NCBI GenBank assembly: GCA_963764725.1
Contig: CAVXTM010000010.1
Location: 1 to 64,000, forward strand
DNA from: an uncultured Gammaproteobacteria bacterium
GTDB taxonomy: Bacteria > Pseudomonadota > Gammaproteobacteria > JACCXJ01
DNA: 64,000 bases
Direction: 5' to 3'
In this document: piece by piece, positions 57,551 through 63,551 of the stretch
How the letters are laid out: each line of letters starts with the position of its first letter
Numbering within the stretch: the stretch's first letter is position 1
Notes under the pieces: model-generated
What the model was told of the DNA's origin: nothing
The model's database searches: none
The model's input: the letters and a program-made list of their open reading frames with translations, nothing else
Translations under genes and position numbers: made by a program

Positions 57551-58709
57551 TCAAGCCCCGAGGCAATACTCGGCGATCAACGCTTCGAGAATCGACTGCA
57601 TCGGAGCCAAGCGCGCGCCGTCCACATACTCGTCGGGCTGATGAGCCTGCGCGATGTCCGCCGGCCCGCAGACGACGGTCTCGATGCCGAGCGCGTTCAG
57701 GAACGGCCCCTCGGTCGCGAAGCTGACCGTACCCGCGGGGAGGCCGGTGAGCCGTTCGAGCGATTGCACGATCGCCGAGTCGCGATCGGTCTTCATGGCG
57801 CCGATGCCCGCCACCAACGGCCGTACCTCGAAGGCGAGACCGCTCCCCTCGACGGCCCGCTCGACGCGCTTGGCGAGCGCTTGGTGTAGCGTATCCAACG
57901 GCATGCCCGGCAAAGTGCGGATATCGATCTGGATCTCGCATTCGGCGCAGATCCGGTTAGGGCTGTCGCCGCCGTGGATATTACCGAGATTAAGCGTCGG
58001 CTCCGGGACCTCGAAATCATGATCCGCATACTCCGCCTGCAGCTCGCCTCGCCATTCCATCAGGGCGCCCAGGACCCGGTACATACCGTCGATCGCATTC
58101 TTCCCGAGCTTCGGGTTGCTCGCATGCCCGGAACGCCCGCGGAGCCGAATGGATTCCAGCGTTACGCCTTTGTGCATATAGACAGGCTTAAGGGCCGTGG
58201 GCTCGCCGATGAGCGCGTAGCGCCCAAGCTTCTCGCCTGCGGCTGCGAGGGCGCGCATCCCGGCCATCGAGCACTCCTCGTCGGCGGTCGCGAGGACGAC
58301 GAGCGGACGCGTCAACGCCCGGAGATCCATAGTGCCAGCCGCGGCGAGGATCAAGGGGAAAAAATTCTTCATGTCGGCCGCACCGAGACCATAGAGCCTC
58401 CCGTCCCGCTCGGTGAGCGTGAAGGGATCAGTCGAACCAGTTGCCCTCGTCATAGGGCACGGTATCGGTGTGCCCGGAAAGGACCAAGCCCCCTTCTCCC
58501 GGACCGCTACGGGCGATCAGATTGAGCTTATCGGGATGATGCCGAAGCGGCATCAGCTCGGTTTGAAACCCCAGGTTCTCGCACCAATCCGCCAGGCATT
58601 CGACCACGGCGCGGTTGCCGTGGTCGTAGCGCGGATCGACGCTGCTCATCGAGGGGATCGCGATGAGCTGCGATAGCATTTGCACTAACGTAGGCAGTTG
58701 CGCCGCCAT
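57551..58709 (-). CDS. argE: Acetylornithine deacetylase, one frameshift near 58435
   Basis: LSGHTDTVP in the 58428-58763 ORF continues as GLGAADMK, ADEE, IGEPT, AHQPDE in 57551-58453. One extra T in TGG T TCG. Confidence 0.88.
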
Positions 58710-58784
58710 GTAAGGCCGCTCAAAGTCATGGAAAGCGGGATTGTACACGGGCCATGCGCTCAAGGCATCGGACCGTTGTGATGA
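58707..58784 (-). repeat. argE leader/promoter region, copy 1 of a direct repeat (continues at 61227-61244)
   Basis: 69/78 identical to 62775-62852; contains TACAAT and the argE ATG. Confidence 0.9.
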
Positions 58785-58878
58785 GGTAGTGTTTCAGTTT
58801 AAGTTTCGGCTTCCGACCCTTACGCGACGTTGCGGATCGAGTCGCGGCTGTCATACGGTCCTTGTTGCACCGGAGACG

Positions 58879-60990
58879 CTACTGGGCCAGGCAGCATTTT
58901 TTGTATTTCTTCCCACTTCCGCAGGGACAGGGATCATTACGGCCGACCTTTCTGTTTTTCGCGGCGGCCGCAACAATCTTTGCTGGTCTCTCGCCGACCC
59001 GAAGATGCTTGGTGAGTTCGTCCATCCTCCCGCTGCGCTCCCATTTGTAGTCCAAGCAAAGCCCGAATCTCAACGATGCTTCCTCGGGAAGGACGCATAC
59101 GCCAAACCAAGTCCTCGCCTTTTCAGTGTACTTTCGCATCTCGCAGTGCCCCTGCAACCTGGGACCCGAAATGTCGATCGGATCACTGTTGCAATGGATT
59201 GTGAGGCCCGTGCCCGCTGCTGTTATTCCTACCGTCAAATCGTGATGCTTGCGGTCCATTCGCGCCTGTTTTGCAATGTGGTCTATTCCGTTACTCACAT
59301 CGTTGACGGTGTCTTCGCTCAGAGTCAGCAGCAGAAACCCGAGGTCGATAGTCCCAGGGTCTGGCCTTGCCTCTATCTCGCGAACGATTTTTCCGATAGA
59401 AGTCGCCGCAGAACGGGTCAATATGCCGTCCGGAGTTGGCTTGCCAGGAATTCCGTCTCGGCGCACAGCCATGGCAACGTCTAAGTCCGATGAAATATCA
59501 TCAGACAACATCACCATGTCGTGCTCGTCGTCGAACCACAGGTTGTTCTTGAGATGATACGAAAGGATCGTCAACTCGTGCGACGCAAGTAGCCGATCCG
59601 AATAGTTCGTACGGCGATTCGTATAGCTTAGGAAATGCAACGGCGACTGAAGCATCTCAGTCATTGCATCCAGCAGAAAGACGTCCATGACGAAAGGAGG
59701 CTGAATCGTTTCTGTCTGCTCGAATCGGAGGAATTGGCGTGCCTGAAACGCAAGTGCCGGATAATGATCAGCTACCACGCAGAAGATGTATATCTCTTTG
59801 AGGGGGACCGGTATCTGAACTTCTCTGGAGTCAGCGGTCACCAGCTTGTAGATGGAGTCAGACAGGAGCTTTGCGCATTTGTATCCTTGGTCGTGCGAGT
59901 CTTGAATGCTCTTCTTAAAGTCGTCCTTGATGCGGCCGTCGTGTCCCTTGCGTGCTTCCAGAGTCAACCGCTTGGACTTCGCCTGAAGGACGATAGCTCT
60001 ATTTGCAAAGACGACCAGAACGTCGATCTCACCGGCTTTCCTCCCTTTGGCCCCAACGATGTAGACGTTGGAATAGACCTTGTCCTGCCCGAACACGAGT
60101 TCGAGTCGCTTGCGTGAAAATTCCTCAGTAAAGCGTCCCCTGTGACGCACGGCGTCGTTCACATAAGTCTTGTCGGCGCCCATCCAGTAGAAGGGCACTT
60201 CGTACAACGCCTCTACGAGGTTGTACGTCTGAAACAGTATGAATTCATCGCTGTTAAGACGAAGCAACGGTGAAGCGTTTGTAGCGTTGAAATCGTTGAT
60301 CGCCCGAAATCCACTATTGTTCTCACTTGGCGGCAACGAGAACGCGAGGAGCACTCTTTCGACATCGGCGATATCACAACCCGATTGGTCGGCCACCTCT
60401 AGCGCAGAAAATGTAAACCCAGGAAGCATTGTCCACTGCTCCGGCGGAGCCTTCTTGAGTGCCTTCAGTGTCGAGGCTGTTTTTCTGTTCTGAATCTCGC
60501 TCACTGCACGAACGACATTGCTTGCCTGCTGGATTGAGAAACCCTTATTGGTGATCAGCCAGGCGTCATCGTTCGCGTATTTTTTGATGGCTAGATCCCG
60601 GTATTGAAAGGTGTAGGCAGATTCGCCTCCATAGAAAATCGGCTCCCTCAATGCTGCTCCACTTGTTAATGGGTTCTCAGCTAGCTTTGCAGACATGGAG
60701 TTGTGCATTTCCTGGAGCAACGCTTCGGTTTTCTCCAAATAGTTTTGCATCACTACTGGCGTTGGCAGCGAGTAATTGATTTTTCCCTTGATAAGTAACC
60801 CGATCAGAGTGGAGATCTCAGTGCGTACCAATCTGTCCATTGAAAATAGATGCGGCATGTCTTCGGCCGTCATTTCTCCTTCGTAGCCGACCATGTTGTC
60901 TCGGAAGCACAGGTACGCTATTGCGTGCGCATACCCCGGCGAAGCACATATCTTCGCGAGGTCATCAAAGATTTCTTGCTCTTCGCGCAT
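58879..60990 (-). CDS. NERD/PD-(D/E)xK-like nuclease domain protein with C-terminal SEC-C motif
   Basis: FTE..SRKRL...GEIDVLVV...IVLQAKSK and KVGRNDPCPCGSGKKYKKCC; lower GC than the host genes. Confidence 0.8.
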   Translation of the reverse strand: MREEQEIFDDLAKICASPGYAHAIAYLCFRDNMVGYEGEMTAEDMPHLFSMDRLVRTEISTLIGLLIKGKINYSLPTPVVMQNYLEKTEALLQEMHNSMSAKLAENPLTSGAALREPIFYGGESAYTFQYRDLAIKKYANDDAWLITNKGFSIQQASNVVRAVSEIQNRKTASTLKALKKAPPEQWTMLPGFTFSALEVADQSGCDIADVERVLLAFSLPPSENNSGFRAINDFNATNASPLLRLNSDEFILFQTYNLVEALYEVPFYWMGADKTYVNDAVRHRGRFTEEFSRKRLELVFGQDKVYSNVYIVGAKGRKAGEIDVLVVFANRAIVLQAKSKRLTLEARKGHDGRIKDDFKKSIQDSHDQGYKCAKLLSDSIYKLVTADSREVQIPVPLKEIYIFCVVADHYPALAFQARQFLRFEQTETIQPPFVMDVFLLDAMTEMLQSPLHFLSYTNRRTNYSDRLLASHELTILSYHLKNNLWFDDEHDMVMLSDDISSDLDVAMAVRRDGIPGKPTPDGILTRSAATSIGKIVREIEARPDPGTIDLGFLLLTLSEDTVNDVSNGIDHIAKQARMDRKHHDLTVGITAAGTGLTIHCNSDPIDISGPRLQGHCEMRKYTEKARTWFGVCVLPEEASLRFGLCLDYKWERSGRMDELTKHLRVGERPAKIVAAAAKNRKVGRNDPCPCGSGKKYKKCCLAQ

Positions 60991-61160
60991 TTCTTACGTA
61001 ACTTGAAGTGTTCGCTGACACGTTGATCGCGCCCAGCTTCGGCACTTCTGCGTGTCCAGTGCGACTGTAGATCCTGCCGCATTACTAGAGAGCCGTCGTG
61101 CTCTCCGCGCGCCACCGCTCAGTGACCGCTACAGGAACAGGCTCATCAACGTCCGGAACT

Positions 61161-61198
61161 GGCCGAGGCTGTGTGGGTTTTTACACAACCTCGGCCGA
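61161..61198. mobile_element. Collapsed IS1182-like ends inserted in a palindromic site
   Basis: GGCCGA GGCTGTGT..TTTTACACAACC TC GGCCGA: a palindrome with duplicated GGCCGA. Confidence 0.5.
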
Positions 61199-61293
61199 TA
61201 GCCGAAATTCAATCTGAGACACTACCTGTGATAACGGCGGCGCCAATATCCCATTAGCCAACGTAGCGTGCGCCGTGCGCACGAACTACGATT

Positions 61294-61482
61294 TTATGAT
61301 AACGGCTCTCCGCCGCGAGCATTGGCCTCGAAGAGCGCCTCCTGGAAGTCCAGCGCAGCGCCTTGGAGGCGTTGTGTGATGACGAAGCGCTGTGCCTTCG
61401 GGAAGCGATCGCACTGCGGGAGCAGCCAGGTTAGCAAGTCGTAGGTCTGGGTTAGAATTACCAGCTCTTTGGCATCCGACAT
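61294..61482 (-). pseudogene. avd: Truncated DGR accessory protein Avd (four-helix bundle)
   Basis: ELVILTQTYDLLTWLLPQCDRFPKAQRFVITQRLQGAALDFQEAL is the N-terminal half of Avd; the C-terminal helices are missing. Confidence 0.75.
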
Positions 61483-61536
61483 GACGAGGAGGATCTGCTA
61501 AATAGTCTCTCGTAATTTCTTGAGCTCGCCCTATTC

Positions 61537-61674
61537 AATGTAGGGTGGGTGAGCCGCGGCGGCGTTACCCACCAACCGTCGGCCGCAGGCCGACACCTTG
61601 AGGTAAGGAGGCCCGCTACGCGGGCCGAGTCGGTGGGTTGCGGCATAAACAGCATGCCGAACCCACCCTACATT
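61537..61674. repeat. Inverted REP doublet (REPIN-like)
   Basis: AATGTAGGGTGGGT...ACCCACCCTACATT perfect 14-bp terminal IR; each unit is GTAG plus a hairpin. Another small GTAG hairpin lies at 61263-61283. Confidence 0.8.
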
Positions 61675-61796
61675 TCCGGAGTCTACAATTTCAAACATCT
61701 TCGGGCTACGTTTCAACGCAATAACGGCGTGGGATAACCTGTGGCTGGAGCACCTGGTTCAAGGCGATATCCGCTTCCTGCTCGCCGGGTTCAATA

Positions 61797-62756
61797 CTAT
61801 CGAGATGGGCCGGACCACTGCCCTTCGAGCTGCGCTGCTCCCGCAGGCGGAGCGCCGGTCGTGTTGTTGCCCCTGGAGACCGCCTCGATCTCGGCCTTGA
61901 GTTCCTCGACTTGCTGTACCGCTGCAGCTTGCTTGTCTGTTGGCGCCTGTTGCGCGACAACGGCCAGCAGGGACGCGAACAGTGGTTCCAAGTCCTTTGG
62001 CGAAATGCCCTGGGTAATCCTGTCGCGCCCGACGAAGTCACGGCCCGCGTGCGCGTCGCCGCCGACGTAGGCGCCACCGCCGGTATCGGTGTTCGTCTGC
62101 GTGCCGGTGTTGACGTTCCCGGTGTTTTTGCCGCCGACATGGACGCCACGGGCGCCGACCGCGGTCGCGCCCGGTCCTTGCGCGATCGCACCACTGCCGG
62201 CGAGGGTCGCCTGGTAGGTGTTGCCGTGAGGCGCGGCGGCGTCACCCTTGTCCGGCTTGAATTCCATGAAGCCGCCTGCAGCAAGCTTGTCCAGTTGCTG
62301 AGTGAAATGGAGTAACAGGCCCTCGGTGTTCTTGTAGCGAGTGTAGAAATGTCCTAGGGCGTCCAGCTTCTCCTGGAACGCAAACAGGCTCATCAAGTCC
62401 TTCTTGTTGGCACTGCTGAGGCTGACTTCGGCCTCCTTGAAGTAAGTGAAGATGAATGGCTTGTGGGTGGATTTGAATTGTTTGAAGGCGTGCTCGAACT
62501 CTTCCTCTGTGTACTTGCCGACCTTGGTCCAGAACAGCATCACGAAAATGTCGCACTCCCGGATGGCTTTGTTGTATTCGTCCTGTAGCCGGCTCTGCGA
62601 CATGGCGTCGAGGAAATCCTCCCACATGACGAGTTCAAGGTAGACGCCTTGATCTACCCAATGCTTGTTCTTGCGATTGATGAAGATCTCGAACTCTTTC
62701 CGGTCCTCCTTCAATTCAGCGGAGGAGGCGAGAAATATTTTCTTCGTTTGCGTCAT
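61797..62756 (-). CDS. TIR-like/DUF4062-like domain protein with Gly/Asn/Thr-rich amyloid-like motif
   Basis: KIFLASSAELKEDR...IRECDIFVMLFWTKVGKYTEEEF, followed by GSGAIAQG...VGGKNTGNVNTG...GGAYVGGDAHAGRDFVGRD. Confidence 0.75.
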   Translation of the reverse strand: MTQTKKIFLASSAELKEDRKEFEIFINRKNKHWVDQGVYLELVMWEDFLDAMSQSRLQDEYNKAIRECDIFVMLFWTKVGKYTEEEFEHAFKQFKSTHKPFIFTYFKEAEVSLSSANKKDLMSLFAFQEKLDALGHFYTRYKNTEGLLLHFTQQLDKLAAGGFMEFKPDKGDAAAPHGNTYQATLAGSGAIAQGPGATAVGARGVHVGGKNTGNVNTGTQTNTDTGGGAYVGGDAHAGRDFVGRDRITQGISPKDLEPLFASLLAVVAQQAPTDKQAAAVQQVEELKAEIEAVSRGNNTTGAPPAGAAQLEGQWSGPSR

Positions 62757-62774
62757 GGTGTTTCCTTGTACCGG

Positions 62775-62862
62775 CATGTAATGCCGCTCAAAGTCATGAA
62801 AAGCAAGATTGTACATGGGCCATGCGCGCAAGGCATCGCGTCGTTGTGATGACGGCGGCGCC
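62775..62862 (-). repeat. argE leader region, copy 2 (uninterrupted)
   Basis: Aligns to 58707-58784 plus 61235-61244. Confidence 0.9.
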
Positions 62863-62931
62863 GGATGAGATGAAATTTTGCTGCGTTTCCTACGCTGCTT
62901 TGGCCCCCTCCGGGGCATCCGTGCTACGTGC

Positions 62932-63357
62932 TCAGCCCATCCGCGACCCAGAGCCTTCCAGTTCTATTAGAAACGCCGCCACCGTAAGGATAGCGATACC
63001 TCGAAATGGATGCTGCATCAGCAGATCCTTGTCGCCGGTCAGAATGCGATCCGCGTCACCGCAGACCGCCAGTTCGAGGAACTTGTTATCTCTTCGATCA
63101 CGGCAGGCGGTGATTTCCTGGTCAATCTTGACCTCCTCACCCGTGGCGATGAACTCGGCGATAAAGGCGCGGGCGGTTTCCGCTTCAATATACCGGGCAA
63201 ACTTCGGTCGAGTGAGCACCTCAGCCAACTCGGCCAAGGTGGCGGAAGAATACAGCAGCGTGTGTTTAGCCGTAACATGATCCAGGACTGGAATGAGCGG
63301 CGAATTTGGATGGATGAGGTAACTGACCCACAGGTTGGTGTCTACCACCACCCTCAT
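62932..63357 (-). CDS. PIN-domain toxin (VapC-like)
   Basis: MRVVVDTN, ELAEVL, CRDRRDNKFLELA, ILTGDKDLL. Confidence 0.92.
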   Translation of the reverse strand: MRVVVDTNLWVSYLIHPNSPLIPVLDHVTAKHTLLYSSATLAELAEVLTRPKFARYIEAETARAFIAEFIATGEEVKIDQEITACRDRRDNKFLELAVCGDADRILTGDKDLLMQHPFRGIAILTVAAFLIELEGSGSRMG

Positions 63358-63551
63358 GCGTCAGACTGCACCAGTTCCTTGAAAATATCATCAGTCATGC
63401 CCCGGCGCTTAGCCTCTTCACGGGCGCGCCGGGCAATGTCGGCTAGGCTCTCATCGACCAGAACGGTCACGGGCTTGTCGGGCGCGATGCCCAGTTGTGC
63501 CAGGATCTTACTGGCGTCGCCCGCAGCGATGTTTTCGATGGCTCGCGTCAT
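63354..63551 (-). CDS. Putative antitoxin of the PIN toxin
   Basis: 65-aa ORF with a 4-bp overlap upstream of PIN; EAKRRGMTDDIFKEL. Confidence 0.75.
   Translation of the reverse strand: MTRAIENIAAGDASKILAQLGIAPDKPVTVLVDESLADIARRAREEAKRRGMTDDIFKELVQSDA

Follow-up and report, generated by a model that had tools for sequence, protein, structure and literature searches.

The element at 58785-61226 and its empty sites

The window analysed here is a 64,000-nucleotide (nt) stretch, positions 1 to 64,000 of contig CAVXTM010000010.1 (assembly GCA_963764725.1), from an uncultured gammaproteobacterium of the JACCXJ01 lineage. The corresponding genome, termed G000, is a draft in 19 contigs, and the element under study lies on its contig C10; nine genomes of the genus were available including G000, among them the congeners G003 and G006 and the unpublished draft congeners G001, G005 and G008. 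A repeat search identified the segment 58785-61226 as a 2442-bp insertion flanked by TGTGATGA and TGTGATAA, consisting of a single cargo gene between two terminal inverted repeats (TIRs). We consider this unit to be, very probably, a non-autonomous cargo-carrying derivative of the IS1 family of insertion sequences (IS), that is, a mobile insertion cassette (MIC) or transposase-less transporter IS (tIS). A previous reading made from the sequence only had placed at 58802-61209 a gene cassette delimited by two 30-bp palindromic sites with swapped arms and inserted as a circle by a recombinase acting in trans. The features on which the comparison rests are the following.

58698-58784 (no strand): left flank, comprising the 5' end and upstream region of an acetylornithine-deacetylase-like gene; copy a of repeat D1
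58777-58784 (no strand): left copy of the target duplication, TGTGATGA, at the end of the left flank
58785-58831 (plus strand): left A-type TIR, about 47 nt, with tip GGTAGTGTTTCAGTTTAAGTTTCGGC; 35/47 identity to the right end
58879-60990 (minus strand): cargo gene, a 703-aa open reading frame (ORF) with a NERD domain at residues 285-385 and a SEC-C zinc motif at residues 684-701
61148-61226 (minus strand): right B-type TIR, outer end at 61226, split by a 32-nt secondary insertion
61165-61196 (no strand): the secondary insertion, a 28-nt palindrome plus a second GGCC; its placement slides by up to 5 nt, GGCCG being repeated
61227-61234 (no strand): right copy of the target duplication, TGTGATAA, 7/8 identity to the left copy
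62766-62862 (no strand): paralogous empty site, with the flank copies fused over one TGTGATGA (62845-62852) and no TIR

The two ends were detected as the inverted pair I1 (58784-58818 / 61193-61227) in the repeat search of the window and, once the 32-nt insertion is taken out, they form an ungapped inverted repeat with 22/26, 27/35 and 35/47 identical positions. This agreement exceeds what chance would give: at least 35 matches were reached by only 4 of 200,000 random pairs of 47-mers from the window, self-overlaps included, and a search of the window with the entire left tip (26 nt, at most 3 mismatches) recovered nothing but the tip itself (0 expected). The strings on which the sequence-only reading was built, 58802-58831 and 61148-61209, are both present exactly as quoted, and the arm counts were correctly given as 8/9 for the outer and 7/9 for the inner arms, read as inverted repeats in a fixed register. 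Both 6-bp cores fit YGRCCS as was claimed, although the inverted reading also gives 4/6 matches, so that the same and the inverted orientation are indistinguishable; the right core is close to its own reverse complement. The 30-bp sequences are thus real, but they are not free-standing sites: they correspond to positions 18-47 of the TIR, with 17 more nt of repeat lying outward. The arms are the inner portion of a plain 47-nt TIR, in which outer part pairs with outer part and inner part with inner part, and nothing is swapped.

The uninterrupted form of the target is found within the window itself. The 87 nt ending at 58784 (repeat D1) recur at 62766-62852 with 86% identity and the 18 nt starting at 61227 (repeat D13) recur at 62845-62862, overlapping the second D1 copy by 8 nt (TGTGATGA), which identifies 62766-62862 as an uninterrupted site and 58785-61226 as the insertion. 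Orthologous sites upstream of the deacetylase gene in G006, G003 and the unpublished G005 read ...GTTGTGATGA joined directly to CGGCG... and carry no TIR, and the orthologous flanks in relatives extend to exactly nucleotide 58784. None of the nine genus genomes contains a frame-only copy, defined as two ends within about 110 bp, and the smallest pair of ends seen in the family measures 583 bp. TIR-less empty sites are what insertion of the whole unit predicts, and the opposite of what is expected from a cassette entering a resident 65-bp miniature inverted-repeat transposable element (MITE), as had been proposed together with an empty allele of that size. Site-specific recombination makes no target duplication. 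The 8-bp duplication observed here surrounds the whole unit, TIRs included, which speaks against integration of a circle by a tyrosine recombinase.

The element has a GC content of 52.5%, versus 62% in the left flank, and a metagenome contig of 2550 nt covers all of it with both junctions (58774-61160 plus 61193-61357). No Rfam match was found in 58300-63000, the promoter scan returned no site, and terminator-like sites were as frequent as expected (3 versus 3.1).

The cargo gene is the only long ORF of the element giving domain matches (PF08378, NERD, 29.7 bits for a cut-off of 22.1; PF02810, SEC-C, 40.9 bits for a cut-off of 20.4), and its GC content is 51.9% versus 59.4% for the genome. Its product has more than 3000 relatives and belongs to a large family of proteins of about 715 aa, some of which are named 'SEC-C metal-binding domain-containing protein'. 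The closest relative, 98% identical, is carried by a 2550-nt contig, and the next ones are full-length and show 60-69% identity; in a sample of the class, 3 of 400 genomes including G000 gave matches (E ≤ 1e-10). A search of metagenome contigs retained 80 loci, two of which (L236 and L237) cover most of the protein; the remaining SEC-C-only loci were not used. No TIR was found near cargo homologues at any of seven loci, of which four are on annotated plasmids, two on metagenome contigs and one in a genome; comparison with the TIR gave only two weak partial matches there (E 0.07 and 0.33). The sequence-only reading had named homologues devoid of such sites as an outcome that would refute it, and the sites are lacking at 7/7 loci. 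The protein is probably a nuclease and possibly serves in defence, and the gene represents a free-standing family captured by the element.

The 32 nt that split the right TIR have a source in the same genome: the arms of their palindrome are the 16-nt terminal repeats of a resident IS at G000:C5:109302-110994. This IS is 1693 bp long, has the ends GAGGTTGTGTAAAAAC and is bordered by GGCC on both sides. The insert is a remnant of the resident IS, made of its two terminal repeats, plus a GGCC duplication. When the contigs of four public metagenome runs were compared with 58300-61700, a clean skip of 32 nt from 61160 to 61193 was found in two of them (X1, depth 234 and side 165; X2, side 45). Since these contigs lack exactly 32 nt, an insert-free allele exists at the same chromosomal site, which justifies the removal by which the right 30-mer had been recovered. 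Related IS or their remnants occur repeatedly within the GGCC of B-type ends, as in the window copy, several G001 copies, L096 and L025. A multi-copy sequence following the B end in G001 was considered as an autonomous element and rejected: it is a distinct IS5-like IS of 1571 bp that has 16-nt ends unlike the TIR and lies in the GGCC of the B end.

The family of ends and its link to IS1-type transposases

A profile search identified 15 clear ends in G000, all of which start at profile positions 1-5. The 30-bp site is thus never encountered without the outer TIR. Two subterminal types could be distinguished, A-type (...TTTCGGCTTCCGACCC...) and B-type (...TTTCGGCTATCGGCC...), which form four A/B pairs in G000, the remaining ends being single. 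Besides the 2.4-kb pair on C10, these are a 1.5-kb pair on C1 enclosing a gene for a 390-aa protein with no Pfam family, a 5.4-kb pair on C7 enclosing genes for a DUF3604 and a PPIase-like protein, and a 5.5-kb pair on C18 enclosing a gene for a 919-aa protein with weak matches to defence-candidate ATPases. No transposase was found inside the four G000 pairs. The sequence-only reading was accordingly right in describing mobile DNA with a single cargo gene, framed by conserved repeats of MITE type, corresponding to neither attC nor dif, and encoding no enzyme, so that any enzyme must act in trans; frame copies do bracket different genes in G000 and its relatives.

With up to 2 mismatches, a 22-nt core of the TIR was present in G000 and in 7 of 8 congeners, and in none of 32 sampled genomes of other genera. 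An exact scan of a species-representative genome collection for a 21-nt core returned 116 stretches, in records titled Alphaproteobacteria, Acidobacteriota, Gamma- and Betaproteobacteria, and more than one end was present in 18 of the 80 loci fetched. Altogether, 25 complete pairs were assembled from G000, its congeners, the species-representative scan and two plasmids. Their 8-nt flanks are identical in 15/25 cases and match at 7 or more positions in 22/25, the element of the window having 7/8. Two different Acidobacteriota records, L107 and L128, contain one and the same 744-bp element, each at a site of its own, which shows that elements transpose whole. The cargo of the TIR-framed units is varied and includes NERD/SEC-C, AbiEii-type ATPase, P63C-domain and DUF4209/DUF7380 proteins, as well as an XRE family regulator inside a Hoeflea plasmid element. 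A full-text search of the literature for the TIR string found no paper containing it.

The inner arms, whose pairing had been read as the trace of a recombination event, did not behave as partner-specific sequences, which counts as a second outcome of the kind that the sequence-only reading had named against itself. Inner-arm matches in the register first proposed were 7, 5, 2, 7, 1, 2, 1 and 3 of 9 in eight elements of the genus. Local similarity over the subterminal 36 nt averaged 7.0 between the ends of the same element (n=8), 6.55 between ends of different elements (standard deviation 1.9, n=56) and 5.6 for shuffled sequences. Because same-element and cross-element similarities are nearly equal, the inner arm is a loosely placed family motif, GCGG(A/T)C(A/G)YT, and not something that recombination produced between particular partners. 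In elements from outside the genus, the symmetry of the two ends does not extend past about nt 26.

Only one gene recurs inside the pairs; it encodes a transposase some 300 aa long that has a helix-turn-helix (HTH) motif at its N-terminus. It is present in 6 of the 25 complete pairs (L119, L132, where it is frameshifted, L148, L206, L231 and L232), and all six loci carry identical sequence over the first 19-23 nt of the TIR. These proteins pass the Pfam model DDE_Tnp_IS1 (PF03400; 32.2 and 28.5 bits for a cut-off of 24.1), and the NCBIfam IS1 model NF033558 is their best-scoring NCBIfam family, ahead of IS481, IS6 and IS1595. A tblastn search against plasmids returned 18 records, the best of which, at 59-68% identity, are annotated as 'IS1 family transposase' by the NCBI Prokaryotic Genome Annotation Pipeline (PGAP). 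Two of these records, NZ_CP041717.1 of Acidiphilium multivorum and NZ_CP011481.1 of Hoeflea sp., have the gene and passenger genes framed by this TIR, with perfect 8-bp duplications (AAGCCGAG and GATGATTG) on the outside. An intact autonomous copy of 2810 bp with the duplication CCGGCCCG was also found in the congener G003 (contig C198); the autonomous copies measure 2.6-4.3 kb and carry passenger genes. The element ends begin with GGnnnTG and the duplication is 8 bp. Target duplications of the IS1 family are 8-9 bp long, and GGnnnTG ends with an 8-bp duplication are reportedly typical of IS1, as ISfinder and Siguier et al. in 2009 are said to have recorded. The family assignment draws on Pfam, on the PGAP names of homologues and on these end and duplication features. 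In the G000 genome, no PF03400 match was found and the transposase used as a query gave only a 57-aa match (E 2e-4).

Other sources of the TIR were considered and rejected: ISL3, with about ten copies in G000, has ends GGGTCTTCGTGAAA..., IS1595 has ends AACGGGCTATCC..., and IS66 is absent from G000, with no TIR near its copies in relatives. It is to be noted that a P63C-domain protein is encoded beside the transposase in autonomous copies from unrelated bacteria (L148 3203-4297 and L206 342-1400), and may be an accessory gene of the element.

According to the scenario that we favour, the terminal 20-26 nt of the TIR, which are common to the autonomous relatives, would be the part bound by the transposase. 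The element inserted whole, TIRs included, just upstream of the deacetylase gene with duplication of 8 bp of target, carrying as a passenger one foreign, lower-GC NERD/SEC-C gene, and it would move only if an autonomous relative supplied the transposase in trans. The window copy is probably stranded, since its genome has no cognate transposase, its TIRs and duplication show decay and a different IS has struck one of the TIRs. The proposal of a new recombinase-driven cassette system does not hold: the locus is a captured gene enclosed by a decayed pair of transposon ends. Of lasting interest is the family, in which an IS1-type TIR tip, conserved to the letter across several phyla, frames many transposase-less units.

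Several described systems resemble this arrangement. In passages of PMC3129680, PMC4133298, PMC9330008 and PMC7986276, MICs and tIS are presented as derivatives of IS that bear passenger genes, either with or without a transposase, the MIC form having none and being presumably moved by a cognate transposase in trans. The element shares with them IS-type TIRs, a target duplication, a passenger gene and the lack of a transposase, and differs by its IS1-derived lineage, by its own A/B subterminal modules and by slots shared with unrelated cargo within one genus. Likewise, the transposase of its relatives passes Pfam DDE_Tnp_IS1, and GGnnnTG ends and an 8-bp duplication agree with the IS1 family, whereas this transposase is a single ORF of about 300 aa with an HTH motif, not a two-ORF frameshift product, and scores below the NCBIfam cut-off. 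[quoted passage not shown]

The nearest named system to the circle-integration model is that of the dif modules (pdif, XerC/XerD) of Acinetobacter plasmids, for which a section of PMC6449649 describes 28-bp 11-6-11 sites in inverse orientation and an enzyme acting in trans. A discrete gene module between inversely oriented sites, with the enzyme in trans, is common to both. In contrast to dif modules, the sites of the window are part of longer transposon ends, are poor palindromes, and come with an 8-bp duplication and a tie to a DDE transposase; a free-standing site, conservative integration and an empty allele keeping a complete site, all features of dif modules, are not encountered. With integron cassettes the element has in common that it is a single promoter-less or short gene unit and that content varies at fixed places, but it has no attC or GTTRRRY, no integrase and no arrays (the G000 ends being paired A/B or single), and target duplications are present.

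Shared slots and rival explanations

Some observations weigh against a non-autonomous IS1-family element or fit it poorly. Transposition itself was not observed, and G000 is without a cognate transposase. The transposases score 73 and 69 bits with NF033558 (best E 3e-20), below the curated cut-off of 100, and are therefore regarded as distant or atypical IS1-family members. In the autonomous copies the repeats end at about 20-23 nt and the A/B modules, at TIR positions 27-47, are missing; the non-autonomous lineage therefore has extra conserved A/B sequence of no assigned role. The scenario also gives no account of how cargo enters between the ends. Finally, a comparison of 38 ends across the genus yielded 23 cross-genome pairs with a matching outer flank. 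In these 23 pairs the outer flank is 83-99% identical up to the TIR, to within 0-3 nt in 22/23, and the ends of the TIR-framed units lie at the identical nucleotide in 2-4 species. In contrast, nt 51-400 are without homology in all 16 pairs in which both interiors are at least 200 nt long, a slot pattern that is hard to explain by simple transposition. No interior is common to any of the 38 ends. It is to be noted that 14 of these 16 pairs involve unpublished draft genomes, the other two being drawn only from G000, G003 and G006.

Four unrelated interiors (in G000, G001, G008 and G005) occupy the slot at the deacetylase gene or the paralogous repeat, the G005 element lying at the paralogous copy. 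A rare TIR variant, A12G, is common to G001, G008 and G005, and another, T8C, is common to G000:C12 and G003:C329; such common variants hint at tips inherited with the slot while contents change. In G000, moreover, a second B end is located at C10:75095, 11 kb downstream of the window, in the same orientation as the end at 61226 and beside a similar 18-nt target; the sequence flanking it is the true orthologue of the G001 right flank. Alternative units of 2.4 kb and 16.3 kb thus share the A end at 58785. A similar 18-nt target at a third place in G000 also has a B end. As a side observation, a sulfatase gene and genes for MFS and AI-2E transporters lie within the 16.3-kb unit.

This slot pattern could reflect repeated insertion into preferred targets, exchange through the TIR tips or use of alternative ends, or a dedicated recombination, the last being the least likely. 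The main competitor to plain insertion keeps the same IS1-derived elements but has their cargo replaced in situ, through homologous exchange at the TIR tips or by a transposase using one resident end and one other end. We hold this to be possible though doubtful. It would account for the 16/16 orthologous pairs devoid of interior homology despite flanks 83-97% identical as far as the TIR, for the four different interiors that share one nucleotide position upstream of the deacetylase gene or of the corresponding paralogous repeat, for the rare variants A12G and T8C common to elements at the same slot and for the second B end, C10:75095, which gives two alternative units with one A end. It is weakened by the share of unpublished drafts in the pairs (14/16), and by the third similar target with a B end in G000, which makes repeated insertion into preferred targets conceivable. 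Homologous recombination would also have only short TIR tips to act on, the variants in common could point to a donor subfamily and not to common descent, and no cargo is found in two slots (0 shared interiors among 38 ends). If in-situ exchange did underlie the pattern, it would offer a simple route for swapping accessory or defence-like genes at fixed chromosomal places. A more far-reaching version, which we judge unlikely, is that the slots are long-lived and their cargo is exchanged in situ at the inner TIR edge, by TIR-guided recombination or by an enzyme acting on the subterminal motif, amounting to a gene-cassette system of transposon origin. In its effect, such a slot system would resemble integrons or dif modules, and most of its load would be genes of nuclease, ATPase and toxin-antitoxin type.

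The model in which a tyrosine recombinase integrates a circular cassette of one gene into a palindromic 9-3-6-3-9 site on a resident MITE, leaving attL/attR-like hybrids, now appears highly improbable. It can invoke frames that bracket variable genes, with wholly different interiors at orthologous slots, homology between orthologous elements that ends 35-45 nt inside the TIR, near the proposed core, and the presence of a GCGG(A/T)C(A/G)YT-type motif in both end types at about positions 36-48. A joint from 58818 to 61198, seen on a single contig of X1 and a single contig of X2, would agree with a frame-only allele if it is clean; however, its sides are only 29 and 28 nt (below 30), and it could also be a short element or a TIR element from elsewhere. 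Another X3 joint (58430 to 61629), which touches highly repeated sequence, was disregarded. A plain TIR accounts for the arms, the 8-bp duplication lies outside the TIRs, and the site is never seen apart from the TIR tip. No MITE is present at empty sites and no frame-only copy exists in the nine genus genomes, and the smallest pair of ends seen in the family is 583 bp; the inner-arm matches range from 1 to 7 of 9 and are not partner-specific, and outside the genus the ends are asymmetric past about nt 26. Autonomous relatives with this TIR tip encode an IS1-family DDE transposase and not a tyrosine recombinase. No recombinase was seen inside or beside the inspected elements, albeit with no systematic test of co-occurrence; an integrase and IS91-like pair at L038 (G001), examined as a recombinase lead, lies beyond an unrelated 85-nt palindromic repeat inserted in the TIR. 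We conclude that the target duplication and the TIR-less empty sites largely refute this model: the observation on which it was founded is confirmed, its interpretation is supported in part, and its mechanism is replaced.

Trivially, an ordinary chromosomal gene might be bordered by an inverted repeat through chance or through faulty assembly, and the draft state of G000, in 19 contigs, could be cited for this. Such an explanation has a negligible probability and is already refuted by the 15 family ends in G000 and the 116 stretches in other genomes, by target duplications consistent across the family, and by the independent 2550-nt metagenome contig that covers the element and both junctions. 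Insertion of a non-autonomous IS1-family derivative stays the best-supported account of 58785-61226.

Surroundings of the element

The region downstream of the element contains several repeats. The duplicate of the deacetylase 5' end and its upstream sequence, at 86% identity, precedes a DUF4062/TIR_2-like gene, and the right-flank sequence occurs three times (61227-61314, part of 62766-62862, and G000:C10:75096-75184). The gene order between the flank copies varies among congeners, and the locus looks like a rearranging hotspot of accessory genes. A stretch of about 170 nt at 61537-61700, with perfect 14-nt inverted arms (I20), has dozens of matches in every genome of the genus and a very high summed contig depth in the metagenomes, and is probably an abundant MITE.

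Two further sequences were encountered at other family ends. The 85-nt palindromic repeat beginning with TTAAGGGTTGTTAGA (G000:C12:203697-203781, L038 64-148 and L228 at about 2405) is inserted into TIRs of the family in two unpublished congeners. At G000:C18:332608-333772, a multi-copy IS of 1.16 kb precedes the A end of the C18 element by 186 bp; judged by eye from the ORF, it seems to encode an IS110-family transposase, and elsewhere this IS is interrupted by a copy of the IS1595 family.

Three coding features complete the right side of the window. A truncated bAvd-like four-helix ORF is found at 61294-61482, and the DUF4062/TIR_2-like protein encoded at 61797-62765 matches the defence candidate PDC-S60 (E 4e-12). 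Further downstream, 62932-63551 encodes a PIN_3 toxin with a small upstream ORF, which likely form a toxin-antitoxin pair.

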